64,000 nucleotides of DNA from NCBI GenBank assembly GCA_965203165.1, contig OZ241849.1, positions 2,093,786 through 2,157,785 of the forward strand, in the 5' to 3' direction. Under the pieces are notes generated by a model, which ran no database searches, was not told the origin of the DNA, and saw nothing but the letters and a program-made list of their open reading frames with translations. The stretch comes from Dehalococcoidia bacterium. Lineage in GTDB: Bacteria; Chloroflexota; Dehalococcoidia; Bin125. Shown piece after piece: positions 23,088 to 61,151 of the stretch (position 1 is its first letter; each line of letters starts with the position of its first letter). The translations under genes were made by a program, and so were the position numbers.

Positions 23088-23817
23088 GTCGGCAGTCTAC
23101 CGAGTGCGGCGCTGGGGTTCGCGGCTCGCCCGCGCGGGCTCGCTGGCGCTCGACCTGACCCTGCCCCCGACCTGCGCCTCGTGCGGCGCCGTGGGTCAAA
23201 TCCTCTGCGAGCGCTGCCGCGCGCGGCTGGAGCGCGCCGAAGGGCCGCGCTGCCCGCGCTGCTGGCTGCGCGCCGAGGGCGTCTGCCGCGCCTGCATGGA
23301 GCGCCCGCCCGCCCTGCGCCAGCTGCGCGCGCCCTTTCGCTACGACGGCGTGGCGCGTCAACTGGTGCTCACCCTCAAGTACTCCGGCGTGCGCCGCGCC
23401 GCCGCGCCGCTCGTCGAAGAAGCGCACGGCCCGCTGGTGCGCCGCGACATCGAACTGATCGCGCCCATTCCCATGACCGGCTGGCGACGCCGCACGCGGG
23501 GCGGAAACCACGCCGCGCACCTGGCCGCCGCGCTCGCTGCGCAGCACGGAATCAAGCTGGACGACACGCTGCTCGCCCGCCGCGGCCGGCGCTCCAAACA
23601 GCAAGCCCGCATGTCCGACATCCGCCAGCGGCGCGCCAATATGCAGGACGCGTTTCACGTCGTCGATCCGCAGCGCGTGCAGGGCCGCGCGGTGCTGCTG
23701 GTCGACGACGTAGCCACGACGATGGCGACGCTCGAATCGGCCGCCGCGGCGCTGCTCGCGGCCGGCGCGGCAACGGTCGACGGCTGGGCCGCGACGCGCG
23801 AGGACCTGCGTGACTGA
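23086..23817 (+). CDS. comF: ComF-family protein (ComFC-like, phosphoribosyltransferase domain with N-terminal Cys-rich region)
   Basis: CASCG...C.RC...C.RC then the PRTase motif VLLVDDVATTMATL. Its ATG overlaps the divergent moaDE start by 2 nt. Confidence 0.8.
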   Translation: MSAVYRVRRWGSRLARAGSLALDLTLPPTCASCGAVGQILCERCRARLERAEGPRCPRCWLRAEGVCRACMERPPALRQLRAPFRYDGVARQLVLTLKYSGVRRAAAPLVEEAHGPLVRRDIELIAPIPMTGWRRRTRGGNHAAHLAAALAAQHGIKLDDTLLARRGRRSKQQARMSDIRQRRANMQDAFHVVDPQRVQGRAVLLVDDVATTMATLESAAAALLAAGAATVDGWAATREDLRD

Positions 23818-25065: not shown

Positions 25066-26337
25066 ATGACCCTGACCCTCTCTGCTCGCGCGATCGGCGA
25101 CGCCGACCCCGAAATCGCCGACGCAATCGAGCGTGAAGCCCGCCGACAGCACGACGGCCTCGAACTGATCGCCTCCGAAAACTACCCCAGCGAGCCCGTG
25201 CTCGCCGCCATGGGCTCGATCCTCACCAACAAGTACGCCGAGGGCTACCCCGGCCGCCGCTACTACGGCGGCTGCGAGTTCGTCGACGTCGTCGAAACCC
25301 TGGCAATCGACCGCGCCAAGTCTCTCTTCGGCGCGCAGCACGCCAACGTCCAGCCACACTCCGGCTCCCAGGCCAACATCGCCGCCTACTACGCCCTGCT
25401 CGAACCGGGCGACACCGCCATGGGCCTCGAGCTCAACCACGGCGGGCACCTCTCGCACGGACTCTCCGTCAACATTTCCGGCCGCTGGTTCCAGTTCGTC
25501 TCCTACGGCGTGGACCGCGAGACCGAGCGAATCGACTACGACGCAATGGCCGCGGCCGCGCGCGAGCACCGCCCGAAAGTGATCGTGGTCGGCGCGACCG
25601 CCTACCCCCGCCACTACGACTTCCCCCGCGCCGCCGAAATCGCCGAGGACGTCGGCGCAACCCTGATGGTCGACATGGCCCACTTCGCCGGCCTCGTGGC
25701 GGGCGGCGTCCACCCTTCTCCAGTGCCCTACGCCCCGGTCGTCACCACCACGACGCACAAGACGCTGCGCGGCCCCCGCTCCGCGCTGATCCTGACCAAC
25801 GAAGAGCTGGCGCGCGAGATCGACCGCGCCGTCTTCCCGGGCACCTCCGGCGGCCCCCACATGCACACCATCGCGGCCAAAGCCGTCGCCCTGCGCGAGG
25901 CCGCGGCGCCCGAGTTCCAGGCCTATTCCGCCCAGATCGTCGCCAACGCCAAAGCCCTTGCCGAAGGCCTCCAGCTGGAGGGCCTGCGGCTCGTCTCCGG
26001 CGGCACCGACAACCACCTCGTGCTGGTCGACGTGGGCGTCAAAGGTCTGACCGGCAAAGCCGCCGAAGCCGCGCTCGACGCCGCCGGCATCACCGCCAAC
26101 AAGAACACGATCCCTTACGACGAGCAGCGCCCGACGGTGACCAGCGGCGTGCGAATCGGCACCCCGGCGCTCACCACGCGAGGCATGCGCGAGCCGGAGA
26201 TGGCCGCGGTCGCGCGGCTGATTGGCCGCGTGCTCGACGCGATCGACGACGAATCCGTGCGTGCGGCAGTGCGCGGCGATGTGCGGGAGCTGGCCGCGGC
26301 CTTCCCCATCCCGGGAATCGCCGCGGCGGACGCATAA
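25066..26337 (+). CDS. glyA: serine hydroxymethyltransferase
   Basis: [24 protein letters not shown], and the PLP-lysine motif [12 protein letters not shown]. Confidence 0.97.
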
Positions 26338-26374
26338 ACGAACCCAAACGAGCAGAGGGCAAGCAGGAGGCGGC

Positions 26375-26668
26375 ATGGCGCGCGAATACGAAATCATGGT
26401 GGTGCTGCACCCCGATGTGGCGGGCGAGCTGGTCGACCAGCGAATCGCCCAGCTGCGCGATCTGCTCAGCGAGCACGGCAACTCCGTGTCCGAGATAATC
26501 GATTGGGGCCGCCGCCGCCTGGCCTACCCCATCGAGCAGGCCTTCGAGGGCCACTACCTCATCGCCCACTACTCCTCCGCAACCGGTGCCGGACAGATCG
26601 CCCTCGAGCGCGCGCTCGCAATCGACGATCAGGTGCTGCGCCACCTCATCGTGCGCCGCGACGATTAG
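26375..26668 (+). CDS. rpsF: 30S ribosomal protein S6
   Basis: MAREYEIMVVLHPDV.. with RBS AGGAGG. 97 aa. Confidence 0.9.
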   Translation: MAREYEIMVVLHPDVAGELVDQRIAQLRDLLSEHGNSVSEIIDWGRRRLAYPIEQAFEGHYLIAHYSSATGAGQIALERALAIDDQVLRHLIVRRDD

Positions 26669-26712
26669 CTAGGATCGCCTCAATGTACGCGCGAGGGAGC
26701 TGGAGCTGAGCC

Positions 26713-27162
26713 GTGGCGAGCCTGAACAAAGTCCAAATCATCGGCAATCTGGGCGGGGATCCGGAGATGCGGTTCACCGCCAACGGGCGCTCCGTCGCCA
26801 ACTTCAATGTCGCCTGTAGCCGTCGCTACACGACGCGCGATGGGGAGCAGCGCGACGACACCGAGTGGGTGCGCGTGGTCTGCTGGGAGCGGCTCGCCGA
26901 GTTGGCTGGCCAATATCTGAGCAAGGGGCGTCAGGTCTACGTTGAAGGTCGCCTACAGACGCGCGAGTGGGAAGACCGCGACGGCAACCGACGCTGGACG
27001 ACCGAAGTGGTCGCCAACGACATTCAGTTTCTCAGCGGGCGCGGCGGCGGGGGAGACGACGATTGGGGCGGCGGCGGTCGCAGTGGTGGGGGCGGCGGAG
27101 GCTATGAGCGCGGCGGCCCGCCGCCGGCCGGCATGGACGCCGACGACCTGCCCTTCGAGTAA
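26713..27162 (+). CDS. ssb: single-stranded DNA-binding protein
   Basis: [14 protein letters not shown]...G..VA.F..A, Gly-rich linker, acidic C-terminal tip DDLPFE (from window numbering this starts at a GTG). Confidence 0.95.
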
Positions 27163-27218
27163 GACGCAACGGCCGACTGCGCAGTCGGCTCTACAGCAGT
27201 GAATCCGAGGAGGACGCG

Positions 27219-28244
27219 ATGACGACAGAACCAGAAGCACCGGCGCCCGCTGCCGAAACGGCTGAAACGGCTGTCGAGCCGCAGCCGACTGAGCAGCCTC
27301 CGGCCGCTGCGGTTCCCGCCGTTGAGCCGGAGCCGGCCGCGCCGGTGCCAGCGCCGCAGCGGGTGACGCCCGGACCCACGACATCCGCCGGGGAGCGTGG
27401 ACCGCAAGTAGTTGAGCGTGCGCGGCGGCGCACGCGGCGGCGGCGCGCGCCGGTCTTTACGCCCCGCGAAGTCGAGAACATCGACTACAAGGACGTCGAC
27501 AAGCTGAAGAAGCTGATCTCCGATCGGGGCAAGATCGAGCCGCGCCGCAAGACGGGGCTCACGGCGAAAGATCAGAAGAAGCTGGCGCGGGAGATCAAGC
27601 GGGCGCGGTACATGGCGCTGCTGCCGTACACAGCGGATCACATGCGGCAGACGAGCCGCTACCGAATTGCGACGCGGGCGGCGGAGCGCGCCGCGCGCTA
27701 CGCAGAGGCGGAACCGCGCCCGGTTGAGGCTGCGCCTGCCGTTGCTGCACCGCCTGCGGACGCGCCCACCGCGGAAGCTGCCGCCGCTGCGCCGCCCGCC
27801 GCCGCTCCCGCGCCTGATGCCGCGCCCGAACCGGCGGCGGCTCCGGCCGAGCCTGTTGCGGAAGCCGCGCCGGCGGTGCCGGAGGCTGCCCCCGCAGCGG
27901 AAGCCGTACCTGCCGTTGCAGCGCCGCCTGCCGCTGCGCCCGAACCGGCGGCGGCTCCGGCCGAGCCTGTTGCGGAAGCCGCGCCGGCGGTGCCGGAGGC
28001 TGCCCCCGCAGCGGAAGCCGTACCTGCCGTTGCAGCGCCGCCTGCCGCTGCGCCCGAACCGGCGGCGGCTCCGGCCGAGCCTGTTGCGGAAGCCGCGCCG
28101 GCGGTGCCGGAGGCTGCCCCCGCAGCGGAAGCCGTACCTGCCGTTGCAGCACCGCCTGCCGCTGCGCCCGAGCTGGCGGCGGCTCCGGCCGAGCCTGTTG
28201 CGGAAGCCGCGCCGGCTGCGCAGCCGGACTCCGATCCGGCATGA
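27219..28244 (+). CDS. rpsR: 30S ribosomal protein S18 with long Pro/Ala-rich N- and C-terminal extensions (341 aa)
   Basis: Canonical S18 core [58 protein letters not shown] at aa 80-137. A single ORF with RBS GAGGAGG. The C-terminal 200 aa are encoded by 114-bp tandem repeats. ATGA overlap with hom. Confidence 0.75.
27822..28240 (+). repeat. tandem repeat, period 114 bp, about 3.7 near-identical copies, inside the rpsR coding region
   Basis: The unit GCGCCCGAACCGGCGGCGGCTCCGGCCGAGCCTGTTGCGGAAGCCGCGCCGGCGGTGCCGGAGGCTGCCCCCGCAGCGGAAGCCGTACCTGCCGTTGCAGCGCCGCCTGCCGCT recurs at 27822, 27936, 28050 and 28164 (partial). Confidence 0.9.
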
Positions 28245-29578
28245 GCGGGCGCGCCGATGTTGGCGTGGGCCTGCTCGGCCTCGGCGTCGTGGGCGGGCGC
28301 GTGTTCGACGAGCTGCGCCGCAACGGGGCGTCGTTCGCGCAGCGCGCTGGACGCAACCTCTCCGTCCGCGCCGTTGCAGTCCGCGATGTCGAGCGGCGGC
28401 GAGAGCAAATCGACGGCTGCGCGGCGCTGATCGACGATCCGCTCGCTGTCTGTACGCGCGGCGATGTGGATCTGGTGGTTGAGCTGATGGGCGGGGAACA
28501 ACCCGCAGCGGAGTGCATCGCGGCGGCGATCGGGGCCGGCAAATCGGTGGTCACTGCGAACAAGGAAGTGATGGCCAAGCACGGGCCGCGGCTGCTCGAT
28601 CTGGCCCGCGAGCGAGGCGTCGAGTTGCGCTACGAGGCGAGCGTGGGCGGCGGCATCCCGATCATTGGCGTGCTGCAACGCGAGTTGCGCGCCAATGAAG
28701 TGCGCTGCGTGCGCGCAATCATCAACGGCACGACCAACTACATGATCACGGAGATGTCGCAGCACGGCGCCTCGTATGAAGATGCCTTGGCGCAGGCGCA
28801 GGCGCAGGGCTACGCGGAGGCGGATCCGACCAACGATGTGGAAGGAATCGACGCGGCCTACAAGCTGGCGATCCTGGCGTCGCTGGCGTTTCACGCGCGG
28901 ATCGCGCCGGAGCAGGTGCACCGCGAGGGCATCCGCGCGCTCAGCGCGCGCGACTTCCGGCATGCCGCGAATTTGGGCTACACGATTCGGATGCTGGCGA
29001 CAGCGCGGCGCACGCCGCGCGGCATCGACCTGCGCGTCCACCCCACGCTGATTCCGACGCACGATCCGATGGCGCGGGTCGATGGCGTGCTGAACGCAGT
29101 GGCGGTCGAAGGCGATTTGCTGGGCACGGTGGTGCTCGAGGGCGAGGGCGCAGGGGCGGGGGCGACGGCCAGCGCGGTGCTCGCGGATGTGCTGGATGTC
29201 ATCGGCGCGGGTTCGGCAGGAGCGCCGCGCGCCCCGGCAGCGCAGGCGGGAACGGCGGCGCTGCTGCCGCTCGCGGAAGTCTGTCTGCCGACCTACCTCC
29301 GCCTGGCGGTGCCGGATCGCGCGGGGGTGCTCGCCGAATTGGGCCAGGCCTTTGCCGAGCAGGGGGTGAGCATCGCCTCTGTGCTGCAAACGCCGCGCCC
29401 GGACGCAGCAGAGAGCGAGCCGCCGGCGGCGGAACTGATCATCACGACCCACGCCGGACCGGACGACGCGATGGATCGGGTGCTGGCCTCGCTGGCAGAC
29501 TCCGACAGCGTGCTTGAGCTGGGCGTGCGGCTGCGGATCGAGGACGAGCGCGACGCAGGAATGGCGGGGGCGTGGTGA
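28241..29578 (+). CDS. hom: homoserine dehydrogenase
   Basis: [15 protein letters not shown]-binding motif, catalytic core, C-terminal ACT domain. Confidence 0.95.
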
Positions 29579-30585
29579 CCACGGCGCAGCGCCCCGAGGG
29601 GGTGGACGGCTGGGTTTCGGTCTTCGAGGAAGACTTGGCAGGGCAGCGCGCGCGCCTTACCGAGCTGCTGCAGTCGGCGGAGCGCGACCGACGCGAGCTG
29701 GCGGCCACGCAGGAGCGGCTGCGGGAGACCGAAGCGCTGGCCCTGCGCGCAGTTTCGCAGGCCGCCGCGATGTCGACGCGGCTGGACGAAATCCAGACGC
29801 TGCGCGAGCGCTTGGGCCGCGCCCAGTCGGCGATCGACGAGCAGGGCGAGCGGCTCGATATGTCGCTGCGGCAGATCCGGCATGAGGTTGATGTGGAGCG
29901 GGAGGCGCTGGCGCAGACGGTGCGCCGCCTCGACGCGGCGGAACACGCGACAGGGGATGCGGTGGAACGGCTCTCGGCGGTGGATGAGGCGCTCCAGCGG
30001 CTGGGCGATACGGACGACGACCTTTCGCAGCGAATCGCACAGGCGGAGTCGCATGTGGAGGCGGGCGCGGCGCGGATTGCGGCCAACGCGGAGGCGATTC
30101 GGCGGGCCCACGCCGATCAGCGCGCGGCCGATGCCCGCGAGGAAATCCACGATCGGCGGCTGACGGAGCTGACCGATCGCTTCAATGCGGCGCAGCAGTC
30201 GCTGTTGCGCGTCCGCGAGACAGCCGATCAATGGGAAGATTTGACCGCGGCGGTGGAGACAATGCGAGCGCGGTCGGACGACGCGCGCCGGATGCTCGAC
30301 GAGGCGACGGCCAGCGCGGCCAGCGTGCGCCGCGCGTTTGAGACGATCGAGGAGCGGATCGGCGATGTAGAGCGCGGGGCGGAGCAGTTGCGCAGCCGAG
30401 ACAGCCACCGCGAGCGGGCGTTGACCTCGCTGAACGACGAGCTGGAGCGCTTGCAGGGCGAGGCGAGCCGCGAACAGCAGCGCTTCGTGGCGCTGCAGGA
30501 GCAGATCCGGCGGCGCCAGATTAATGACCTGGAACAGGAGATCCGGGAACTCAAAGCCTATGTGCGGGTGCAGGCCGATGACTGA
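29572..30585 (+). CDS. hypothetical coiled-coil protein (337 aa, very R/E/A/L/Q-rich, no TM)
   Basis: Strong GC3 periodicity. The GTG start overlaps the hom stop, and its own stop overlaps the thrC ATG (GATGACTGA). Confidence 0.65.
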   Translation: MVTTAQRPEGVDGWVSVFEEDLAGQRARLTELLQSAERDRRELAATQERLRETEALALRAVSQAAAMSTRLDEIQTLRERLGRAQSAIDEQGERLDMSLRQIRHEVDVEREALAQTVRRLDAAEHATGDAVERLSAVDEALQRLGDTDDDLSQRIAQAESHVEAGAARIAANAEAIRRAHADQRAADAREEIHDRRLTELTDRFNAAQQSLLRVRETADQWEDLTAAVETMRARSDDARRMLDEATASAASVRRAFETIEERIGDVERGAEQLRSRDSHRERALTSLNDELERLQGEASREQQRFVALQEQIRRRQINDLEQEIRELKAYVRVQADD

Positions 30586-31645
30586 TCCGCGCGGTGCCGG
30601 CGGTGTGCTTGAGCGGTACGCCGAATGGCTGCCGATTACGCAGGCGACGCCGCGGATCAGCCTGGGCGAGGGCGGCACGCCGCTGGTGCGCGCCGAAGCG
30701 CTCGAACGGCGCACGGGCGCGGCGGAAGTCCAACTCAAGCTCGAACTGTGCAATCCCACCGCGTCGTTCAAGGACCGCGGAATGGTGGTGGCCGTGGCGA
30801 AGGCGATCGAGCAGGGAGCCACGGCGGTGCTCTGCGCGTCAACCGGCAACACCAGCGCCTCCGCCGCGGCCTACGCCGCGCACTGCGGATTGCGCGCGTT
30901 CGTGCTTGTGCCGGGCGCGAAAGTCGCCCAGGGCAAACTGGCGCAGGCGATCGTCCATGGTGCGCGGGTGCTGGCTGTGGAGGGCAGCTTTGACGACGCG
31001 CTGCGGCTGGCGCGCAACGCGACCGAGGATCTGCCCGTGGCGCTGGTCAACTCCGTCAATCCCTACCGCATCGCGGGGCAGAAGACGGCCGCGATGGAGA
31101 TTGTCGACGCGCTCGGCGACGCGCCGGATTTGCACTGCCTGCCTGTCGGCAACGCGGGCAACATCACGGCCTACTGGCAGGGCTACCGGGAGTATGCGCG
31201 CGCCGAGCGCGTCAGCCGCCTGCCGCGTATCCTGGGCGTGCAGGCAGCCGGGGCCGCCCCGCTCGTGTCGGGCAAGGTCGTCGAGCGGCCCGACACCGTA
31301 GCGACGGCGATTCGAATCGGCAACCCAGCCTCATGGGAGGGAGCGATCGCCGCGCGCGACGAGTCGGGCGGGGCGATCGTGGCGGTCGACGACGCCCAAA
31401 TTCTGGATGCCTGGCAAATGCTGGCGAGCGAAGCGGGGATTTTCTGCGAGCCCGCCTCGGCCGCTGCGGTGGCCGGGCTGCTCGCGGCCGATCACAGCGG
31501 GGTGGCCGGGCGGCGGGTCGTCTGCACCATCACCGGGCACGGCTTGAAAGACGCGGACCTGGTCGGGCAGCTGCAGAGCGACATCGTGCCCCTCCCTGCC
31601 GATTACCGCGCGGTGGCGGCGGCGATTGCAGAGCGGCTCTCGTGA
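30578..31645 (+). CDS. thrC: threonine synthase
   Basis: PLP-lysine motif NPTASFKDRG; GNTSAS...; typical short-form ThrC. Confidence 0.95.
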   Translation: MTDPRGAGGVLERYAEWLPITQATPRISLGEGGTPLVRAEALERRTGAAEVQLKLELCNPTASFKDRGMVVAVAKAIEQGATAVLCASTGNTSASAAAYAAHCGLRAFVLVPGAKVAQGKLAQAIVHGARVLAVEGSFDDALRLARNATEDLPVALVNSVNPYRIAGQKTAAMEIVDALGDAPDLHCLPVGNAGNITAYWQGYREYARAERVSRLPRILGVQAAGAAPLVSGKVVERPDTVATAIRIGNPASWEGAIAARDESGGAIVAVDDAQILDAWQMLASEAGIFCEPASAAAVAGLLAADHSGVAGRRVVCTITGHGLKDADLVGQLQSDIVPLPADYRAVAAAIAERLS

Positions 31646-32214
31646 GCGGGCAGGTTGATCTGGCCCGAGCGGAGGCTGCCGTGCGCGAGCTGCTGCTTTC
31701 GCTGGGCGAGGACCCGGAGCGGGAGGGCCTGCGCGAGACGCCGCGCCGCGTGGCGGCGGCCTTTGCGGAGCTGCTGGGCGGGCGTGAGATCGACGCGGAA
31801 GCGCTGCTCCAGGTGGGCTTTAACGAAGGCCACGACGAGATGGTGATTCTGCGTGACATTCCCTTCTTCTCGATTTGCGAACACCACCTGATCCCGTTCC
31901 GCGGCGCGGCGCATGTGGCGTATGTCCCGCGCGGGCGCGTGGTGGGCATTTCCAAGCTGGCCCGGCTGGTCGACGCCGTGGCCCGCCGCCCCCAACTGCA
32001 GGAGCGGCTCACCGCGCAGATCGCCGACATCATGATGGATGCGCTGGAGCCCGACGGCGCGGCGGTAGCAGTGGAGGCGGAGCACCTCTGCATGACGATG
32101 CGCGGGATTAAGAAACCGGGTTCGCGGATGGTCACCTCGGCGATGCGGGGTACTTTTCAAAGCCAGAATGACACGCGCGCGGAGTTCCTCGCGCTGGTGC
32201 GGGCGCGCGAATGA
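31642..32214 (+). CDS. folE: GTP cyclohydrolase I
   Basis: ICEHHLIPF, ISKLARLV, HLCMTMRG. The GTG start overlaps the thrC stop. Confidence 0.95.
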   Translation: MSGQVDLARAEAAVRELLLSLGEDPEREGLRETPRRVAAAFAELLGGREIDAEALLQVGFNEGHDEMVILRDIPFFSICEHHLIPFRGAAHVAYVPRGRVVGISKLARLVDAVARRPQLQERLTAQIADIMMDALEPDGAAVAVEAEHLCMTMRGIKKPGSRMVTSAMRGTFQSQNDTRAEFLALVRARE

Positions 32215-41067: not shown

Positions 41068-41721
41068 ATGCCCGTACCCGGTCTCCTCGGCAAGAAGCTC
41101 GGCATGGTGCAGGTGATCCGCGACGACGGGAGCGTGGTCGGCTGCACGGTGCTCGAGGTCGGTCCCTGTCCCGTGACGCAGCTGAAGACGCCGGAGCGCG
41201 ACGGCTACGCTGCTGTGCAGCTGGGCTTTGGCGCGGTGCCGGACTGGCGGGTGTCAAAGCCCGAGCGAGGGCACACAGGCAGCAACGGCGCGCTGCGCAC
41301 ACTGAGCGAATTCCGCGTGGAACCGGAGCAACTGGACGATGTTGAACTCGGCGCGCTGCTCCAGGCCAGCGAGATATTCAGTGTCGGCGACCGCGTTGAT
41401 GTGCAAGGCTTGTCCAAGGGCAAAGGGTTCGCTGGCGTGGTCAAGCGGCACGGTTTCCGCGGAGGGCCGCGGACGCACGGACAGAGCGATCGGCACCGCG
41501 CGCCCGGCTCGGTCGGCGCGGGCACCACGCCCGGGCGGGTGCTGAAGGGCACGCGGATGGCGGGGCGGATGGGCGGCCGGCGGCGCACTTCGATGAATTT
41601 GCGCGTCGTCGAAATTAATGTGGAGCGGAACCTCGTGTACGTTGAGGGCTCCGTGCCGGGCGCGACCAACGGCACGGTGCGCATTCGCCAGACCAAGCGG
41701 CGGGGCGGGAAGAAGCGATGA
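41068..41721 (+). CDS. rplC: 50S ribosomal protein L3
   Basis: LLGKKLGM.Q....G..V..TV.E. Internal ATG at 41068 of track ORF 40918..41721. Confidence 0.95.
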   Translation: MPVPGLLGKKLGMVQVIRDDGSVVGCTVLEVGPCPVTQLKTPERDGYAAVQLGFGAVPDWRVSKPERGHTGSNGALRTLSEFRVEPEQLDDVELGALLQASEIFSVGDRVDVQGLSKGKGFAGVVKRHGFRGGPRTHGQSDRHRAPGSVGAGTTPGRVLKGTRMAGRMGGRRRTSMNLRVVEINVERNLVYVEGSVPGATNGTVRIRQTKRRGGKKR

Positions 41722-42395
41722 AGCTGCCGGTACTGGACGCCGCGGGCGAGCAGGTCGGCGAGATCGACGCCGACGACAGCGTGTTCGGCATCGAGCCGAA
41801 CTTGGGCGTCGTGCATCAGGCCGTGCTGGCCTACCGGGCGAATCAGCGCCAGGGCACGCACAACACGTTGAACCGTTCGGATGTCCGCCAAGCCAACACC
41901 AAGTCGCGCCGCCAGAAGGGCGGCGGGCGCGCCCGCCTCGGCGGTCCCTCTTCGCCTACGCGGATCGGCGGAGCGGTGGCGCACGGCCCGCATCCGCGCT
42001 CCTACCGTCAGCGGATGCCGAAGCGCATGCGCCGCCTGGCGATTCGCTCAATGCTCTCGCAGCGCGCAGCGGAGGGCGGGATTGTGGTAACCGCGCCCGA
42101 TCTGGCCTTCGAGCCGCGCAGCGGGGCGATGAACAAGCTGTGCCGCGCGCTGGGCGTGGAGCGAAACGCGTTGCTGGTCAGCGACGGGCTGGACGAAAAT
42201 CTCGTGCGCGGCACCCGCAACCTCCAACACATCAGTGCCAGCTTGGCTGACACGCTCAACACCTACCTGCTGATCACGCACGACCGGCTGATCATGACCG
42301 AAGCCGCCGTGCGGCGGGTCGAATCGCTGTGGGCGCTGCCCGCAGGCGGCCCGGCGGATGATCCTGAGTCGGCAAGCGACGGCGAGGGCGGCTGA
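41718..42395 (+). CDS. rplD: 50S ribosomal protein L4, acidic C-terminal tail
   Basis: QAVLAYRANQRQGTH.T..RS.V....K..RQKGTGRAR. Confidence 0.95.
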   Translation: MKLPVLDAAGEQVGEIDADDSVFGIEPNLGVVHQAVLAYRANQRQGTHNTLNRSDVRQANTKSRRQKGGGRARLGGPSSPTRIGGAVAHGPHPRSYRQRMPKRMRRLAIRSMLSQRAAEGGIVVTAPDLAFEPRSGAMNKLCRALGVERNALLVSDGLDENLVRGTRNLQHISASLADTLNTYLLITHDRLIMTEAAVRRVESLWALPAGGPADDPESASDGEGG

Positions 42396-44178: not shown

Positions 44179-44928
44179 GTGGGCCAGAAAGTACACCCGA
44201 CCAGTTTCCGCATCCCGACCATCTACGGCTGGCGCAGCCAGTGGTACGCCGGCAAGGATTACGCGAAGCTCGTGCAGGAAGACATCGAGCTGCGCAAGTT
44301 CATCAATGGGCGGCTCGATGACGCCTCGATTTCGCGGATCGATATCCAGCGCAGCGCCGGCCAACTGCGGATCACGCTGCACACCGCGAAGCCGGGCATC
44401 GTGATCGGCCGCGGCGGGCAAAATGTGGACGAGCTGCGTCGCGTGCTGGGCGCCCGCACAGGGCGGCGCACCAACGTGGATGTCGAGGAAATCCGCACGC
44501 CGGAGCTCGATGCCAACCTCGTCGCGCGCAGCGTGGCGGAGCAGCTGGAACGGCGAATCGCCTTCCGGCGGGCGATTAAGCAGGCAGTGCAGCGGACGAT
44601 GCAGCGGGGTGCGGAGGGCGCGAAGATCATCATCAGCGGGCGGCTGGGCGGCGCGGAAATGTCGCGCAGCGCCAAAGAGATGGACGGCCGCGTGCCGCTG
44701 CACACGCTGCGCGCGGACATTGACTACGGCTTTGCCGAGGCGCGCACCGTGTTCGGGCGGATCGGCGTCAAAGTCTGGATTTACAAGGGCGAAATCCTGC
44801 CCTTCGAGCCGGAGGACCGCCCGGAGCAGGCGAGCGGTCCGGCCCAGGGCGTGCCCCCCCCGACTGGCTCGCCCTCGACCAGCTCGCCCCTGGCCGAGCG
44901 CGGCGACACCGAGGGAAGGAACGCCTGA
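44179..44928 (+). CDS. rpsC: 30S ribosomal protein S3, with a Pro-rich C-terminal tail
   Basis: GQKVHPT.FRI...W.S.WYA; KH domain. Confidence 0.96.
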
Positions 44929-45349: not shown

Positions 45350-45823
45350 ATGCCCAACCCACTCGCCGATGAAGCGCGCGCACTCTCCGATCTGGAACTG
45401 GGCGAGGCGATCAACGAGGCCTACCGCGAAATGTTCAATCTCCAGTTCCAGCGCGGCACGCGTCAGCTGCAAAACCCGATGGCGATTCGCGCCGCGCGGC
45501 GGCAGATCGCGCGTCTGCGCACGATCTACCGCGAGCGCCAGCAGGGCGAGGCGGGCGGCGTGCCGCTGGCCCGTCCCACCGCTCCCGCTGTCCCGCCGCC
45601 CAGCGCGGACGCGCCGGCTGAGGAGGACGCTTCGGTGGCCGAGGCCGAGGCCGAGCCGGTGGAGGGCGACGCAGAACCGACCGCAGCGGCCGACCCGTCC
45701 GCGGCCGACACAGCGCTGCCCAGCGAGGACGCGTCGGCTGAGGAGGGCGCTTCGGCGGCCGAGGCTGAGCCGGTGGAGAGCGACGCAGAGCCGACCGCAG
45801 CGCAGACGAGCAAGGACGAGTAA
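45350..45823 (+). CDS. rpmC: 50S ribosomal protein L29 with a ~90-aa acidic Ala/Glu/Asp-rich repeat tail
   Basis: L29 core L..LEL.EA.NEAYREMFNLQFQ in the first 65 aa. The tail carries two ~25-aa repeats (DASVAEAEAEPVEGDAEPTAA / GASAAEAEPVESDAEPTAA). Confidence 0.85.
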   Translation: MPNPLADEARALSDLELGEAINEAYREMFNLQFQRGTRQLQNPMAIRAARRQIARLRTIYRERQQGEAGGVPLARPTAPAVPPPSADAPAEEDASVAEAEAEPVEGDAEPTAAADPSAADTALPSEDASAEEGASAAEAEPVESDAEPTAAQTSKDE

Positions 45824-45826
45824 AGC

Positions 45827-46234
45827 ATGGCCCGCAAACAACGAGTCGGGTTCGCCGCGGCCGATGCCGCCCAGAAAACGGTGGTGGTGCGTGTGGAACG
45901 CACCGTGCGGCACCCGCTATACAAAAAGACCATCCGCCGCCGCAAGCGCTACCTGGCGCACGATGAAGGTAACAACTGCCGCAACGGCGATCGCGTGCTG
46001 ATCGAGGAGTGCCGCCCGCTCTCGCGCCGCAAGACCTGGCGCGTGGTGGAAATCTTGGAACGGCGCGAGCTGGCCGAAATTCAGCCCGGCGAGATCGCCG
46101 CGCCGGCGATTGAGCCGGATGAGCCGCCCGCTCCCCCGGACGAGGCTGAGGCTGCACCGCAGGCCGCCGCGGCCGACGAGACCAAGGCGGGCGACGATGT
46201 GGGCGGCGCGGCGGAGAGCGAGGCGTCGGCATGA
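45827..46234 (+). CDS. rpsQ: 30S ribosomal protein S17, acidic C-terminal tail
   Basis: [24 protein letters not shown]...C..GD.V.I.E.RPLS..K.W.VVEI. Confidence 0.93.
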
Positions 46235-48929: not shown

Positions 48930-49556
48930 ATGCAGCAGCGTTCGACACAGCAGCGGGACGGCGGCCGCGGCGGCCGCTTCCGCCGCGATGCGCCGCAGGA
49001 CGATTACATCGAGAAGGTCGTCGACATCAACCGCGTCGCCAAAGTGGTCAAGGGCGGGCGACGCTTCAGCTTCACCGCCGTCGTGGTCGTGGGCGACGGC
49101 GACGGGCGCGTCGGTGTGGGCATCGGGCGGGCCAACGAAGTGCCCGACGCGATCCGCAAAGGCGCGACGATCGCCCGCCGCGAGATGGTCGAAGTTCCGA
49201 TCCACAACGGCACAATCCCGCATCCGGTCACGGCGCGCTTCTGCGCTTCGCAGGTGCTGCTCAAGCCGGCCGCAGCGGGTACCGGCGTAATCGCGGGCGG
49301 CGGCGTGCGAGCCGTGCTCGAAGCCGTCGGACTGCGCAACGTGCTCAGCAAGTCGCTCGGCTCCAACAATGTCGTGAACGTGGTGCAAGCCACCATTCAG
49401 GGCTTGCAGGAACTGCGTGATCCGGTCGAGGCGCGCCGCGAGCGCCTGCGCCTGGCGGGGCGCCTCCCCGCCGAAATCGAAGCGCCGGCGCCGCCTCTCG
49501 AAGACGCGGCCGAGGCGGCCCCCGAGCCGCCCGCCGCCGCCGCAACCAGCGAGTAA
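48930..49556 (+). CDS. rpsE: 30S ribosomal protein S5, Pro/Ala-rich C-terminal tail
   Basis: [34 protein letters not shown]. Confidence 0.96.
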
Positions 49557-55242: not shown

Positions 55243-56394
55243 GTGGTTTCGCAGCACGACACCCCGAAGATCAACATCGAGGAAGCCGGCGCCGCCTACG
55301 CGCGCATCACCGCCGCCCCGCTGGCGCGTGGCTTCGCGCACACGCTCGGCAACGCCATCCGCCGCGTGCTGCTCTCCGCCATCCGCGGCGCGGCCGTCAC
55401 CTCTGTGCGGATCGACCAGGCTCAGCACGAGTTCTCCACCATCCCCGCGATGAAGGAAGATACCACCGAGTTCCTGCTCAACCTGCGCAGCATCCGGCTC
55501 CGCGCCTTGGCCGACCGCCCGGCCGAAATGACGCTCATCGCCAGCGGACAGCGCGAGATCACAGCGTCCGACATCGAAGTGCCGGCCGACTACGAGATCG
55601 TCAACCCCGACCTCTACTTGGCCACGCTCGATGCGCCCGACGCTGAACTCAGCGTGCGCATGAATGTGCAGACCGGCTACGGCTTCCAGCGCTCGGAGAT
55701 GAACCCGAACGGCGAATCGCTGATCGGCGTGATCCCGCTCGACGCCGTTTTTACCCCCGTTCGCCGCGTCTCCTACGAAGTCCATCCGGCCGGTGGCGGC
55801 CAGAGCGAAGGCGCCGGACTCGAACAGATGACGCTCGAAGTCTGGACCGACGGCAGCATCACCGGCAAAGATGCGATCAAGTCCGCCGCCCAGCTGCTCC
55901 AGGATGAGCTGGCCATGTTCGCCACGCTGGGCGACCCGCTCGCGCCCCGCCAGATCGAGCCCAACGAGCGGCTGGGCATCTCGACCGAGGACTACAACCG
56001 CTCGATCGACGACCTGCAGCTCTCCGTCCGCGCGCACAACTGCCTCAAGCGCAGCGGTCTGCTGATCGTGGGCCAAATCCTCGAGAAATCCGAAGACGAT
56101 CTGCTCACCCTGCGCAACTTCGGCGAGAAATCCTACGTCGAGCTGGTCGAGCGGTTGTTTGAGATGGGTCTGATCGACGAGCTCGACCCGCGCCTGCGTC
56201 GCGCCCGCGAGGGCGTGTTCGTGCCGACCGACGACGAGCCGCTCACGGAACTGCCGCCGCTGCCCGACGACTCGGATGCCGAGGCGGAGCGAATCATCAC
56301 CGATGCGCCGCCGCTCGACGGCGAAGAAGAGCCGGCCAGCCCGCTCGGCGCAGCCCTGCTCGAGGCGCTGCGCAAAGCCCAGCCCAGCGAATAG
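55243..56394 (+). CDS. rpoA: DNA-directed RNA polymerase alpha subunit, acidic C-terminal extension
   Basis: alpha-NTD (GFAHTLGNAIRRVLLS), alpha-CTD (DLQLSVRAHNCLKRSGLLIVGQIL). GTG start. Confidence 0.95.
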   Translation: MVSQHDTPKINIEEAGAAYARITAAPLARGFAHTLGNAIRRVLLSAIRGAAVTSVRIDQAQHEFSTIPAMKEDTTEFLLNLRSIRLRALADRPAEMTLIASGQREITASDIEVPADYEIVNPDLYLATLDAPDAELSVRMNVQTGYGFQRSEMNPNGESLIGVIPLDAVFTPVRRVSYEVHPAGGGQSEGAGLEQMTLEVWTDGSITGKDAIKSAAQLLQDELAMFATLGDPLAPRQIEPNERLGISTEDYNRSIDDLQLSVRAHNCLKRSGLLIVGQILEKSEDDLLTLRNFGEKSYVELVERLFEMGLIDELDPRLRRAREGVFVPTDDEPLTELPPLPDDSDAEAERIITDAPPLDGEEEPASPLGAALLEALRKAQPSE

Positions 56395-56406: not shown

Positions 56407-56829
56407 ATGCGCCACCGTAAAGCCGGCCGCGCCCTCAGCCGCAGCCGTTCGCACCGCGCCGCACTCGTCCGCAACCAGGTCACCGACCTCCTCCGCCACG
56501 AAGCCATCGTCACCACCGAGGCCAAGGCCAAGTCGATCCGCCCCGTCGCCGAGCGCATGATCACCCTCGGCAAGCGCGGCACACTCCACGCCCGCCGCCA
56601 GGCCGCCGCCGTGCTGACCGACAAAAAAATCGTGCGGCGCCTCTTCGACGAAGTCGCCCCACGCTTCGAAGACCGCCCCGGCGGCTACACCCGCATCATC
56701 AAGCTGGGCCCGCGCCGCGGCGACGGCGCGGCCATGGCCCACATCGAGCTCGTCGAGCGCGCCGCCTCCGAACCGGCCGCAGCAGACACCGACGACGAAG
56801 CTGAAGCGAGCGAGCAGTCCCCCGCGTGA
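56407..56829 (+). CDS. rplQ: 50S ribosomal protein L17
   Basis: [11 protein letters not shown]...HR.AL.RN. Confidence 0.95.
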
Positions 56830-58054: not shown

Positions 58055-58456
58055 ATGACCACCATGACCGGCCACTATCACTACGGCCTCGGCCGGCGCA
58101 AAAACTCGATCGCTCGCGTCCGGCTCTACGCCGGCGACGGCACAATCATCATCAACGGCAAGCCCGCCGAGGAGTGGTTCTCGCGCGAGGAGCAGCGCCG
58201 CCTGATCAAAGAGCCCCTCTTCCACACTGGCATGCAAAACAGCTTCAGCGCGCAGGTCAAGTGCAGCGGCGGCGGCCGCACCGGCTGGGCCGGCGCCATC
58301 CGCCTCGGCATCGCCCGCGCGCTGCTCGCCTCCGACGAAAACCTCCGCCGCCCCCTCCGCCAGGCCGGCATGCTCACCCGCGACCCCAGAGCCAAGGAGC
58401 GCAAAAAGCCCGGCCTGAAGCGCGCCCGCAAAGCCCCCCAGTACACCAAGCGCTAA
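58055..58456 (+). CDS. rpsI: 30S ribosomal protein S9
   Basis: Y.GLGRRK.S.ARV.L..G.G.I.ING; C-terminal ...KKPGLKRARKAPQYTKR. Confidence 0.96.
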   Translation: MTTMTGHYHYGLGRRKNSIARVRLYAGDGTIIINGKPAEEWFSREEQRRLIKEPLFHTGMQNSFSAQVKCSGGGRTGWAGAIRLGIARALLASDENLRRPLRQAGMLTRDPRAKERKKPGLKRARKAPQYTKR

Positions 58457-58473: not shown

Positions 58474-58660
58474 GAGCTCCGCCACCCCCGCGCATCTACC
58501 CCCCCCCAAGCAGCTCCACCACCCCCGCGCAGCTAGCTCCGCCACCCCCGCTCAAGCAGCTCCGTCCCCCCGCGCGAGCAGCTCCGTCATACCCGCGCGA
58601 GTAGATCCGTCATATCCGCGCAACCAGCTCCGTCATACCCGCGCTTGCCGCGGGTATCTC
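58474..58660. repeat. degenerate tandem repeat array (units ~22-26 nt, AGCTCCGYCAYACCCGCGC...), ending in a perfect 9-bp hairpin, in the convergent rpsI/metK intergenic region
   Basis: Seven successive units, each beginning (C)AGCTCC / ATCCGTCA with a CCCCGCGC or ACCCGCGC core. The terminal ATACCCGCG-CTTGC-CGCGGGTAT lies at 58635-58657. Confidence 0.7.
58635..58657. terminator. candidate bidirectional terminator hairpin (perfect 9-bp stem, 5-nt loop) between convergent rpsI and metK; no U tract
   Basis: ATACCCGCG CTTGC CGCGGGTAT. Confidence 0.4.
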
Positions 58661-58671
58661 GCCGAAACCCC

Positions 58672-59892
58672 CTACAGCCCCACCCCCGCCCGCAACCCCC
58701 CGACCTCCCCCGTCGCCTCCCACGGCAGATCCAGATCCGCGCGCCCGAAGTGGCCGTAGGCCGCCGTCGGCTCGTACATCGGGCGCAGCAAATCCAGCTG
58801 CTCGATGATCGCCAGCGGGCGCAGGTCAAAGTGCTCCCGCACCAACCGCTCCAACTCCGCTTCCGCAATGTGCGCCGTGCCAAACGTCAGCAGCGTCAGC
58901 GAGGTCGGCTCCGGCCGCCCGATCGCATAGGAAAGCTGCACCTCGGCGCGGTCGGCGAGTTCGGCCGCCACGATGTTCTTCGCCACCCAGCGCGCCGCGT
59001 ATGCCCCGGAGCGATCCACCTTTGACGGATCCTTCCCCGAAAACGCCCCGCCGCCGTGCCGCGCGATCCCGCCGTACGTATCCACGATGATCTTCCGCCC
59101 CGTCAGCCCCGCGTCCGCCGCCGGCCCGCCCACGATGAAATTCCCCGCCGGGTTGATGAAATACTGCGTCTCGGCGTCCAGCAACTGCGGCGGAATCGTC
59201 GGCGCGATCACCTCATCCCGCATCGCGTGTTCGATCTGGCTGTGGCTCACAGCGGCCGTGTGCTGGGTGGAGACGACGACGGCCGACACGCGGTGCGGCC
59301 GACCCTCCGCGTATTCCACCGTCACCTGCGCCTTGCCGTCCGGGCGCAGCCAGGGCAGCTCGCCGCTCTTGCGCACCTGCGCCAGCCGCCGCGTCAGGCC
59401 GTCGGCCAGCCACAGCGGCGCGGGCATCAACGTCTCCGTCTCGTCGCACGCGAAGCCGATCATCATTCCCTGATCACCCGCGCCCTGTAGGTCGTAGGGA
59501 TCGTCCGAGTCCCCCGTCCGCGCCGCGCGCCGCAGACCCTCCGCGATATCCGGCGACTGCTGCTTCACCCGCACCACCACCTCGCACGACTCCGCGTCGA
59601 ACCCGATCGCCGGATCCGTGTACCCAATCCGACGCAGCACTCCGCGCGCAATCGCGTCGAAATCAATCTCCGCCTGCGTTGTGATCTCGCCGAAGATCAG
59701 TACGAAATCCGAAGACACCGCGACCTCGCAGGCCACATGCGAATCCCGATCCTGCGCCAGGCAGGCGTCCAGCACTGCGTCCGAAATCTGATCGCAGACC
59801 TTGTCCGGGTGCCCCTCCGTGACCGACTCCGAGGTCCAGCGGTCGCCGGGGAACCCGCTCGCTCCGCGCTGCGTCGTCTGCCGATCGGTCAT
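58672..59892 (-). CDS. metK: S-adenosylmethionine synthetase
   Basis: ESV.EGHPDK.CDQISDA.LDA; GAGDQG.M.G.A.DET..LMP; D.YGG...[10 protein letters not shown]. The ATG at 59892 overlaps the ahcY stop (ATGA). Confidence 0.97.
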
Positions 59893-61151
59893 GTGCCCGC
59901 ATCCCACGAGCGCAGGTAGCGCTCCTGCTCCGGCGTGAGCCGATCCAGCTGCACGCCCATCGCCGCCAGCTTAAGCGCTGCGACCTGTTCATCAATCTCC
60001 GCGGGCACATCCCAGACGCCCGCCGCCGGGCGCGGCTCCGTCCGCGCCAGATACTCAATCGCCAGCGCCTGATTTGCGAAGCTCATATCCATCACGCTGG
60101 CCGGGTGCCCCTCCGCTGCGGAGAGATTGACCAGCCGCCCCTCGGCGAGCAGGAGCAGTTCGCGCCCGTCGGTCGTGCGGTGCGCCGTCACGTAGGGCCG
60201 CGCCTCTCGCCGCTCCTCCGTCATCGCCTCCAGCGCATCCAAATTCACCTCGTGGTTGAAGTGCCCGGCATTCGCCAGAATCGCCCCCGACCGCATCCGC
60301 TCCAGGTGCGGCGCGTCGATCACGTGGATGTCTCCCGTCGTCGTCACAAACACATCCCCCACCCCGGCCGCCGCCTCCATCGTCTCCACCCGAAAGCCGT
60401 CCATCACCGCTTCCAGCGCTCGCAGCGGCGCGACCTCCGTCACGATCACCTGCGCGCCCAGCCCCCGCGCCCGCGACGCCACGCCACGCCCGCACCAGCC
60501 GTAGCCCGCCACTACCACCACCTTCCCCGCCAGCAGCAGATTCGTCGCCCGAATGATCCCGTCCAGCGCGCTCTGCCCCGTCCCGTAGCGATTGTCGAAC
60601 ATGTGCTTCGTCGCCGCGTCGTTCACCGCGATGATCGGATACCGCAGCGCGCCCTCCGCCGCCATCGCCCGCAGCCGAATCACCCCCGTCGTCGTCTCCT
60701 CGCAGCCCCCAATCACATCGCCCAGCAACTCTTGCCGCTCTCCGTGCAGCGTCGAAACCAGATCCGCCCCGTCGTCCACCGTGATCTGCGGAGCCGCATC
60801 CAGCGCCCGCCCGATGTGCTCGTAGTACTGCTCGTTGCTCTCTCCCTTGATCGCGAACACCGCCATCCCCGCGCGCTCCACCAGCGCCGCCGCCACCTCG
60901 TCCTGCGTCGAAAGCGGATTGCTCGCGCACAGCGTCACCTCCGCGCCGCCCTGCTGCAGCGCCAGCGCGAGATTGGCCGTCTCGGAGGTGACGTGCAGGC
61001 AGGCGCCGATGCGCAGACCGTCCAGCGGGCGCTCTCGCGCAAACCGCTCCCCGATCTGCGCGATCACCGGCATCTCCCGCGCCGCCCAGGCAATCCGCTG
61101 CTCGCCGGCGTCGGCCAGCCGACGCTCTCGAATGTCCGACTCCACGCTCAC
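59889..61151 (-). CDS. ahcY: adenosylhomocysteinase
   Basis: NAD-binding [12 protein letters not shown]; CEETTTGV; GHFN.E. Confidence 0.97.

Follow-up and report, generated by a model that had tools for sequence, protein, structure and literature searches.

An extended bS18 gene

We analyzed a 64,000-nt stretch of a Dehalococcoidia bacterium genome (assembly GCA_965203165.1, contig OZ241849.1, positions 2,093,786 to 2,157,785 of the forward strand), referred to here as the window, in which the rpsR gene for ribosomal protein bS18 carries long extensions on both sides of its core and, in its C-terminal part, a near-perfect tandem array of 114-bp units. The coding sequence (CDS) runs from an ATG at position 27219 to position 28244 on the plus strand, as do all features of this gene described below, and encodes 341 amino acids (aa); its assignment draws on the list of open reading frames (ORFs), the Pfam family PF01084, and homologues. 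bS18 is among the smallest and most uniform of the bacterial ribosomal proteins. An earlier annotation made from the sequence alone (the first-pass annotation) had described the protein as tripled in size, which understates the enlargement: at 341 aa instead of ~75 aa, it is ~4.5 times the normal length.

The Pfam model Ribosomal_S18 (PF01084) matched aa 85 to 135 with 81.2 bits against a cutoff of 21, covering model positions 2 to 52 of 52. Among proteins of solved ribosomes, 72 distinct PDB sequences of bS18 matched; the bacterial and chloroplast chains are 52 to 103 aa long and align only to aa ~66 to 143. The best match was Bacillus subtilis bS18 (E = 1.8e-19), with query aa 69 to 139 on chain residues 7 to 77 of 79. 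The canonical core, aa 66 to 139 (27414 to 27635), consists of a basic RRRTRRRR N-terminal arm and the S18 fold to LLPYTA and aligns with the B. subtilis, Escherichia coli, and Thermus thermophilus chains, leaving ~65 aa outside it on the N-terminal side and ~200 aa on the C-terminal side. Both the full-model Pfam match and the alignment to solved chains agree with the first-pass annotation that the S18 core is intact. Upstream lie rpsF (26375 to 26668), encoding a 97-aa S6 and identified through the PF01250 match of its counterpart on strain-level contig L094, and ssb (26713 to 27162), identified by its SSB Pfam match, so that the rpsF-ssb-rpsR operon context is present. By every available test, the gene is a genuine rpsR of a high-G+C, soil-type Chloroflexota bacterium. 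The closest named genome records are metagenome-assembled genomes (MAGs) labeled “Dehalococcoidia bacterium” (L001, L002, and L003), and one source labels a homologue “Chloroflexi bacterium.”

Both boundaries of the gene proposed at first pass held up. A Shine-Dalgarno (SD) sequence, GAGGAGG (27207 to 27213), lies 5 nt before the ATG, and (A/G)GGAGG stands at equal spacing before the rpsR ATG in L001, L002, and L056 to L058; the SD and the N-terminal MTTEPE are kept in all relatives examined, as expected if the start lies upstream of the core behind a strong ribosome-binding site. At the other end, the open run of ~200 codons downstream of the core stops in an ATGA overlap with hom, the TGA being at 28242 to 28244 and the hom ATG at 28241.

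The N-terminal extension (aa 1 to 65; 27219 to 27413) begins with ~45 aa of Pro/Ala/Glu/Thr-rich predicted coil followed by a clade-conserved motif. Its net charge is −7, and AlphaFold2 (AF2) modeled it as coil with a predicted local distance difference test (pLDDT) score of 43 to 55. Tandem Repeats Finder (TRF) detected a 9-bp mini-repeat in it, GAAACGGCT, with 2.1 copies encoding AETAET (27255 to 27273). Strain-level contig L097 is one copy of this AET mini-repeat shorter, and its protein reads AAETAVEP at that place.

Directly after the core comes a clade-specific Arg-rich α-helix, aa 140 to 163 (27636 to 27707). The AF2 model, built on a 73-sequence alignment, contains the usual S18 helices plus this extra helix, which holds the model’s top pLDDT block (86). 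Six of its arginines (R143, R147, R149, R153, R157, and R160) are each conserved at ≥90%, and all fall inside a 160-degree arc of the helical wheel. When the C-terminal helix alone was used to search the PDB, only the LLPYT motif matched; beyond it, the sole match had an E value of 0.52. The helix is without counterpart in any solved bS18. It may make additional contact with rRNA next to bS6 on the 30S platform.

Tandem array and composition of the tail

TRF reported a period of 114 bp at 27811 to 28216, with 3.6 copies, 97% matches, no indels, and a score of 770. Copy-by-copy comparison resolved this into three full copies of 114 bp (38 aa) at 27811 to 27924, 27925 to 28038, and 28039 to 28152 and a partial fourth copy of 64 bp (28153 to 28216), in which GAGCTG (E-L) replaces GAACCG (E-P). 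Copies 2 and 3 are one synonymous base apart, copies 1 and 2 differ at 3 bases, all at the left edge of copy 1, and the partial copy has 2 deviating bases. Shifted by 114, the sequence matches itself exactly for up to 215 bp, compared with a chance estimate of ~18 bp for 64 kb of DNA at 70% G+C. The 38-aa unit is itself made of three diverged ~13-aa subunits (a 39-bp TRF period), and the array must therefore have passed through at least two rounds of amplification. Ahead of the array is a degenerate Pro/Ala-rich lead-in, aa 164 to 197 (27708 to 27810; TRF periods of 9 to 18 bp), which is related to the repeat unit but older and diverged: of 114 positions, 64 are unlike those of copy 1, and a 10-residue stretch is common to both. 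Behind the array, the coding sequence closes with a unique stretch (28217 to 28244) that encodes ..AAQPDSDPA and includes the TGA stop, which lies within the ATGA at 28241 to 28244.

The first-pass annotation had counted the 38-aa unit at about 3.7 near-identical DNA copies, close to the 3.6 found by TRF, though without noting that the unit is composite. Its further statement that the tails are built of 114-bp repeats applies to the C-terminal tail; the N-terminal one is not made of this repeat. With head-to-tail, near-identical copies and a unit length divisible by 3, the array has the makeup of a coding variable-number tandem repeat (VNTR).

The tail (aa 166 to 341) contains 86 Ala, 46 Pro, 20 Glu, 15 Val, 4 Asp, and 1 Arg, with no Lys and no aromatic residues, for a net charge of −23. 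AF2 modeled residues 164 to 341 as coil (pLDDT of ~45 to 55). Because Lys is absent and the only Arg precedes Pro, the C-terminal tryptic peptide (Y161 to A341) would be ~181 aa long and the tail would be invisible to tryptic proteomics.

The extensions in related genomes

Comparison with related rpsR genes, which had been proposed at first pass, showed that the extension is, as far as sequence can tell, a property of the clade and not of the window genome alone. A search of 5.8 billion proteins retrieved 86 homologues from MAGs of the Dehalococcoidia type, all 187 to 358 aa long and all with a Pro/Ala/Glu-rich tail in the same frame. They have in common the MTTEPE N terminus, a 32-residue motif, the S18 core, and an HMRQTSR(Y/F)R..TRMA.RA.R segment. 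In the tails, only composition is conserved (Pro, Ala, Glu, Val, and Thr, with essentially no Lys); they are uniformly acidic and range from ~20 to ~180 aa. Several of these relatives sit on contigs of 2.3 to 3.7 Mb, and those inspected have long-read-style names, two of them marked circular (e.g., ctg28372_19x_c), so the extension is not a short-read artefact. OZ251529 and the contigs that carry P0001 and P0003 are examples of multimegabase MAG contigs that look closed. The extensions have the marks of lineage-specific disordered ribosomal protein extensions: they lie outside aa 66 to 143, occur in all 86 homologues, and, apart from one helix, are coil by AF2, with disorder predicted.

Repeats in these genes respect the reading frame. 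Across eight rpsR genes, all TRF tandem-repeat periods (40/40) are multiples of 3, and the units, which differ by lineage (54, 57, 69/33, and 114 bp), are always in frame and encode Pro/Ala/Glu. In the window tail, G+C at the three codon positions is 0.99/0.77/0.64, the pattern of GCN/CCN/GAR codons in the rpsR frame. Together with the retained start and SD and the overlap of the rpsR stop with hom in 7/7 relatives, these regularities favor the first-pass view that the extension is translated.

Three alternative ORFs across the array, at 27667 to 28482 (plus strand), 27595 to 28578 (minus strand), and 27698 to 29452 (minus strand), were considered and rejected; their products would be Arg- or Gly/Ala/Ser-rich nonsense, and all three run into hom. 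Such ORFs are by-products of high G+C and could mislead automatic gene callers.

Tail length in strains and sister clades

Strain-level contigs were retrieved by exact matches to the window SSB, to the 337-aa protein encoded downstream of hom, and to FolE, and their flanks were 97 to 99.9% identical to the window. The window allele, probably assembled from long reads, has 3.6 copies and a 341-aa S18. Contig L100 (ERZ25070167; 198 kb, with a long-read-style name) has 2.6 copies, two of them full, with units identical to those of the window, and encodes 303 aa. The same copy number and protein length were found in L094, a 41.7-kb short-read scaffold with single-nucleotide polymorphisms (SNPs) of its own that is no simple collapse of the window allele. 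Two further short-read alleles have 1.6 copies, one of them full: L095 (= L101), of 265 aa, which is exactly the product expected of a collapsed graph, and L102, of 266 aa, which has its own SNP pattern. Only L100 among these variant alleles appears to be a long-read assembly. Because several contigs end inside the array, the copy numbers of the short-read alleles are lower bounds.

Whole-unit differences also separate close relatives in sister clades. P0005, P0011, and P0016 have 118-aa cores that are 100% identical, and their C-terminal tails are set apart by insertions or deletions of 11, 12, or 23 aa built from an APEPTPVAAAP unit; their N termini show a 14-aa difference (two LMPPTEP units). 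A 14-aa deletion in the tail separates P0003 from P0235, and P0036 and P0236, both on ~2.34-Mb contigs, are one PPTES unit apart. Exact look-up of the window S18, hom, and S6 proteins gave no match, and the 303- and 265-aa alleles were missing from the clustered protein collection. In a scan of metagenome contigs, a 32-nt piece of the unit was unmatched, and a protein-based scan gave no close relative, the best being at 63%.

We conclude that this gene family truly varies in length, with whole units being gained and lost, and that such polymorphism is very probable for the 114-bp array itself. The suggestion made at first pass that the locus behaves as a VNTR is supported by the 3.6, 2.6, and 1.6 copies in near-identical contigs and by the whole-unit indels beside identical cores in sister clades.

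A separate difference was seen just upstream. When window positions 26700 to 27000 were compared with L100 and L102, ssb was only 64 to 78% identical between flanks of ~99% identity, and the L100 SSB is 150 aa long. Such a mosaic points to replacement of the ssb allele through recombination immediately upstream of rpsR.

The junction with hom and the gene neighborhood

The hom gene (28241 to 29578, plus strand) encodes a 445-aa homoserine dehydrogenase with Pfam matches to Homoserine_dh, NAD_binding_3, and ACT. In the window it has no recognizable SD of its own, only the ATGA overlap, as would fit the rpsR-hom coupling claimed at first pass. In the 7 relatives checked, the rpsR stop invariably overlaps the hom start, with a ..PA-stop/ATGA junction in L001, L002, and L056 to L058 and a TGATG overlap in L059. 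We infer that hom is translationally coupled to rpsR by termination-reinitiation at the ATGA.

The gene order glyA-rpsF-ssb-rpsR-hom-X-thrC-folE is conserved among relatives. Within the window, rpsF-ssb-rpsR is joined with glyA upstream and with hom, thrC, and folE downstream in one packed, overlapping string (25066 to 32214). In other bacteria, rplI often follows rpsR; here it is not next after rpsR, and hom is in that place. Between hom and thrC, and overlapping both, lies a gene at 29572 to 30585 (plus strand) for a 337-aa protein rich in Glu, Arg, Ala, and Leu. It had no Pfam match and is probably a coiled-coil protein; a counterpart of 335 to 337 aa occupies the same place in every relative examined.

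Acidic tails on other core proteins

The main ribosomal protein cluster, S12 to S9, lies at 36.4 to 58.5 kb in the window, and seven of its products have acidic, low-complexity C-terminal tails rich in Pro, Ala, Glu, and Asp. The longest belongs to uL29 (45350 to 45823, plus strand), a 157-aa protein with a normal core and a ~90-aa acidic tail (..EEDASVAEAEAEPVEGDAEPTAA..EEGASAAEAEPVESDAEPTAA..) that includes a diverged 2-fold repeat. The E. coli uL29 is ~63 aa long; in the clade, homologues of the window protein measure 91 to 178 aa. Shorter tails were found on RpoA (55243 to 56394; 383 aa, with a tail of ~75 aa beyond the C-terminal domain), uS17 (45827 to 46234; 135 aa, tail of ~55 aa), uS3 (44179 to 44928; 249 aa, tail of ~40 aa), uS5 (48930 to 49556; 208 aa, tail of ~30 aa), bL17 (56407 to 56829; 140 aa, tail of ~24 aa), and uL4 (41718 to 42395; 225 aa, tail of ~19 aa). 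S7, S10, S19, L22, L14, L16, L24, S8, L30, S9, S11, and S4 are of ordinary size. A scan for at least 60% Pro plus Ala in 40 aa had singled out S18 as the only Pro/Ala-tailed protein of the window; that threshold proved too strict, and the result was set aside in view of the seven other proteins with shorter acidic tails.

Scanning 1.84 billion cluster representatives without a profile yielded ~5,000 S18 representatives, ~15 of which have the clade’s extra helix. Several unrelated S18 proteins of the CxxC type in the same scan carry acidic tails of their own. No S18 listed in the cluster scan reaches 341 aa, and across both searches only P0078 (358 aa), the start of which looks miscalled, is longer. 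The bS18 of the window is the extreme of a ribosome-wide, partly lineage-independent habit of bearing tails, and the tails across core proteins suggest that a “hairy ribosome” is characteristic of the lineage as a whole.

Two other tandem repeats were noted in the window. A degenerate 23-bp repeat (58498 to 58644; ~6.4 copies, 81% match, consensus ACCCCCGCGCAAGCAGCTCCGCC), the period of which is not a multiple of 3, lies between rpsI (ending at 58456) and a convergent gene at 58672 to 59907 (minus strand); a short inverted repeat, ACCCGCGC..GCGGGT, comes next (~58627 to 58650). A 36-bp imperfect repeat with 2.7 copies (23211 to 23304) falls in a ComF-like double-zinc-ribbon/phosphoribosyltransferase gene and looks like ordinary repetition of CxxC..CxxC motifs.

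Comparison with known extended ribosomal proteins

The nearest analogue is chloroplast bS18c, the N-terminal extension of which (19 to 55 aa) contains one to seven copies of a basic/aromatic 7-aa motif with a proposed role in mRNA binding (bioRxiv 10.64898/2026.07.03.736309). It is the same protein, likewise with a poorly ordered terminal repeat extension of varying copy number, located in the chloroplast at the platform/mRNA-exit side of the 30S subunit. In the window, however, the repeat is C terminal, acidic, and Pro/Ala rich, with a 38-aa unit and a tail of ~180 aa, and it varies between strains of a free-living bacterium. Lacking the N-terminal 7-aa basic/aromatic motif, the window protein is an analogue of the chloroplast type and not a member of it. 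Tandem-repeat insertions in plastid rps18 (Cereus, 1,308 and 927 bp; Medicago, a 15-bp unit repeated four times) likewise enlarge this essential gene in frame and are of unequal size in close species. They differ from the present case in their AT-rich genomes, an internal insertion for which a possible intron has been discussed, the absence of an acidic Pro/Ala tail, and the absence of strain-level data.

Actinobacteria, also of high G+C, bear extensions on several ribosomal proteins, many of them solvent exposed and invisible in cryo-electron microscopy maps. In Cutibacterium acnes, uL4 has an additional disordered 100 aa and bS16 an additional 65 aa, with extensions also on uS5, uS17, and uL22; the N-terminal extension of Mycobacterium smegmatis bS18 is 10 aa. 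In those organisms bS18 is extended by those 10 aa only, and the studies consulted describe no tandem-repeat architecture or copy-number polymorphism, whereas the extension of the window bS18 is 3.5 times the size of its core. A phylum-specific helix on a platform protein is likewise found in Bacteroidetes, where the C-terminal helix of bS6 contributes to a bS6/bS18/bS21 pocket for the anti-SD sequence (PMC7797042). By analogy, helix 140 to 163 of the window protein could play a comparable role. The Bacteroidetes helix is on bS6 and not on bS18, and rpsR in the window clade keeps strong SD sites; since the window gene and its relatives retain them, SD use has evidently not been abandoned in the clade.

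The acidic C-terminal tail of E. coli bS6, to which RimK adds Glu and which adjoins bS18, the bL12 hinge, the linkers of E2 lipoyl domains, and engineered PAS sequences all act as solvated spacers or bristles. The bS6 tail and such Ala/Pro linkers span 4 to 40 aa, do not come from long DNA repeats, and are not known to vary in copy number.

Interpretation and alternatives

We consider it likely that the gene encodes a bS18 with an N-terminal extension, an Arg-rich helix, and a disordered acidic tail that is constrained in frame and composition and changes in length by repeat slippage. On this account, the bS18 of the clade would have gained an N-terminal extension of ~65 aa, the helix, and a long, acidic, Lys-free Pro/Ala tail. 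The tail would be translated to its very end, where the stop/start overlap would hand ribosomes to hom. Its frame and composition would be under constraint and its sequence and length hardly at all, and it would evolve by slippage or unequal recombination of in-frame units of 15 to 114 bp, depending on the species. In this species, the 114-bp unit would have been amplified very recently, giving strain alleles of 3.6, 2.6, and 1.6 copies (341, 303, and 265 aa), and a nearly neutral tail length would explain why alleles exist at strain level. Lacking Lys and being acidic, the tail would stay off the rRNA and in the solvent, where it might, speculatively, form a polyanionic, entropic bristle close to the side of the 30S platform on which the mRNA exit and the anti-SD lie.

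Several observations pull the other way. The homologue search used a Pro/Ala-rich query and was biased toward long-tailed relatives, and the rpsR product of L002, with the same hom junction, is only 161 aa. G+C at third codon positions in the tail is 0.64, well below the 0.81 to 0.90 of neighboring genes. Other frames are also open across the array (271-, 327-, and 584-aa ORFs), and in DNA of 80% G+C an open frame alone therefore proves nothing. Low AF2 confidence does not on its own prove that the tail is disordered, and the 341-aa product and its presence in ribosomes are something that we infer from sequence. As to copy number, the ends of the short-read contigs L096, L103, and L106 fall inside the array, the 1.6-copy alleles are just what short-read collapse of a 3.6-copy array would give, and the long-read origin of the window assembly is probable on one basis, the presence of exact SSB, uL29, and FolE on a single contig of >1 Mb. 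These last points would fit a reading in which the tail is real but the copy-number differences, and perhaps the 3.6 copies of the window too, are assembly artefacts with no true polymorphism behind them: the 215-bp exact self-match exceeds common short-read k-mer sizes, and L095 reads as copy 1 at its left edge and as copy 3 at its right, exactly as a collapsed path would. We find this rather improbable, given that L100, with its 2.6 copies, is named like circular 3.2-Mb long-read-style contigs, that the SNP patterns of L094 and L102 are not simple collapses of the window array, and that whole-unit indels in sister clades lie on multimegabase contigs.

The other alternatives concern what the tail is for. 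One is that the extensions act in initiation, the helix lying in the bS6/bS18 groove by the 16S rRNA 3′ end and the polyanionic tail working at the mRNA exit as a shield or as a mimic of nucleic acid; access of the SD to the anti-SD, the binding of bS1/bS21, or ribosome hibernation would then be tuned by tail length, and the polymorphism would be adaptive and not neutral. bS18 lines the mRNA exit site with uS7, uS11, and bS21 (PMC6133939), and in Flavobacterium the 16S 3′ end sits in a groove of bS18 and the lineage-specific C-terminal helix of bS6 (PMC7797042); the window bS6, at just 97 aa, has no such C-terminal region, and conservation of the helix with its Arg face across the clade and the uniformly acidic, Lys-free tails would also fit. 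A dedicated role in initiation is nevertheless unlikely, since the tail sequence is unconserved beyond composition, its length varies from ~20 to ~180 aa, and similar tails on uL29, bL17, uL4, and RpoA, far from the platform, point to a generic property. It is very improbable that the tail has its role outside the mature ribosome, either cleaved off or as a translated spacer that delivers ribosomes to hom and sets hom/thrC expression. The overlap with hom is kept in all relatives despite hypervariable tails, the window hom is without an SD of its own, and in some relatives the SD of hom falls within the last codons of the tail (..EEG.., ..NEE..). Coupling requires only the overlap, however, and not 180 extra codons; L002 makes the same junction with a short tail, the acidic Pro/Ala-rich composition is maintained across the clade, and other tailed ribosomal proteins are without similarly coupled downstream genes. 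That the array is an RNA or DNA element, such as a structured hom leader or a regulatory repeat, and is open in the rpsR frame by accident can hardly be credited. Such an element would account for a perfect periodic repeat of 0.78 to 0.81 G+C directly upstream of hom, but for the array mRNA the minimum free energy had a z score of +0.27, and 62 of 100 shuffled versions were at least as stable; neither Rfam nor tRNA scanning of the window gave a match, and a promoter and terminator scan of the rpsF-hom stretch found neither. The units of relatives, moreover, are unrelated in sequence yet always in frame and Pro/Ala/Glu encoding.

Implications

A translated bS18 tail that changes in length by whole units overturns no principle, in that lineage-specific ribosomal protein extensions and plastid rps18 repeats are already known. 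Literature searches, the coverage of which was incomplete and which are weak evidence of absence, returned no report of an extended bacterial bS18 or of tails on Chloroflexota ribosomal proteins. In practical terms, the array breaks or collapses short-read assemblies. We regard it as quite improbable that length variation of the polyanionic tail at the mRNA-exit/anti-SD platform, at the level of strains and possibly of cells, is a contingency-type mechanism that makes functionally different ribosomes; if it were, the ribosomes might differ, for example, in their SD dependence, in mRNA selection, in subunit association, or in hibernation, and the tail would be part of a “hairy ribosome” in which many ribosomal proteins of the lineage bear acidic brushes. 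Several ribosomal proteins and RpoA bear acidic low-complexity tails in at least one uncultured Chloroflexota lineage, and the strain alleles of its rpsR may offer a natural allelic series for asking what disordered ribosomal protein tails do and what they cost.

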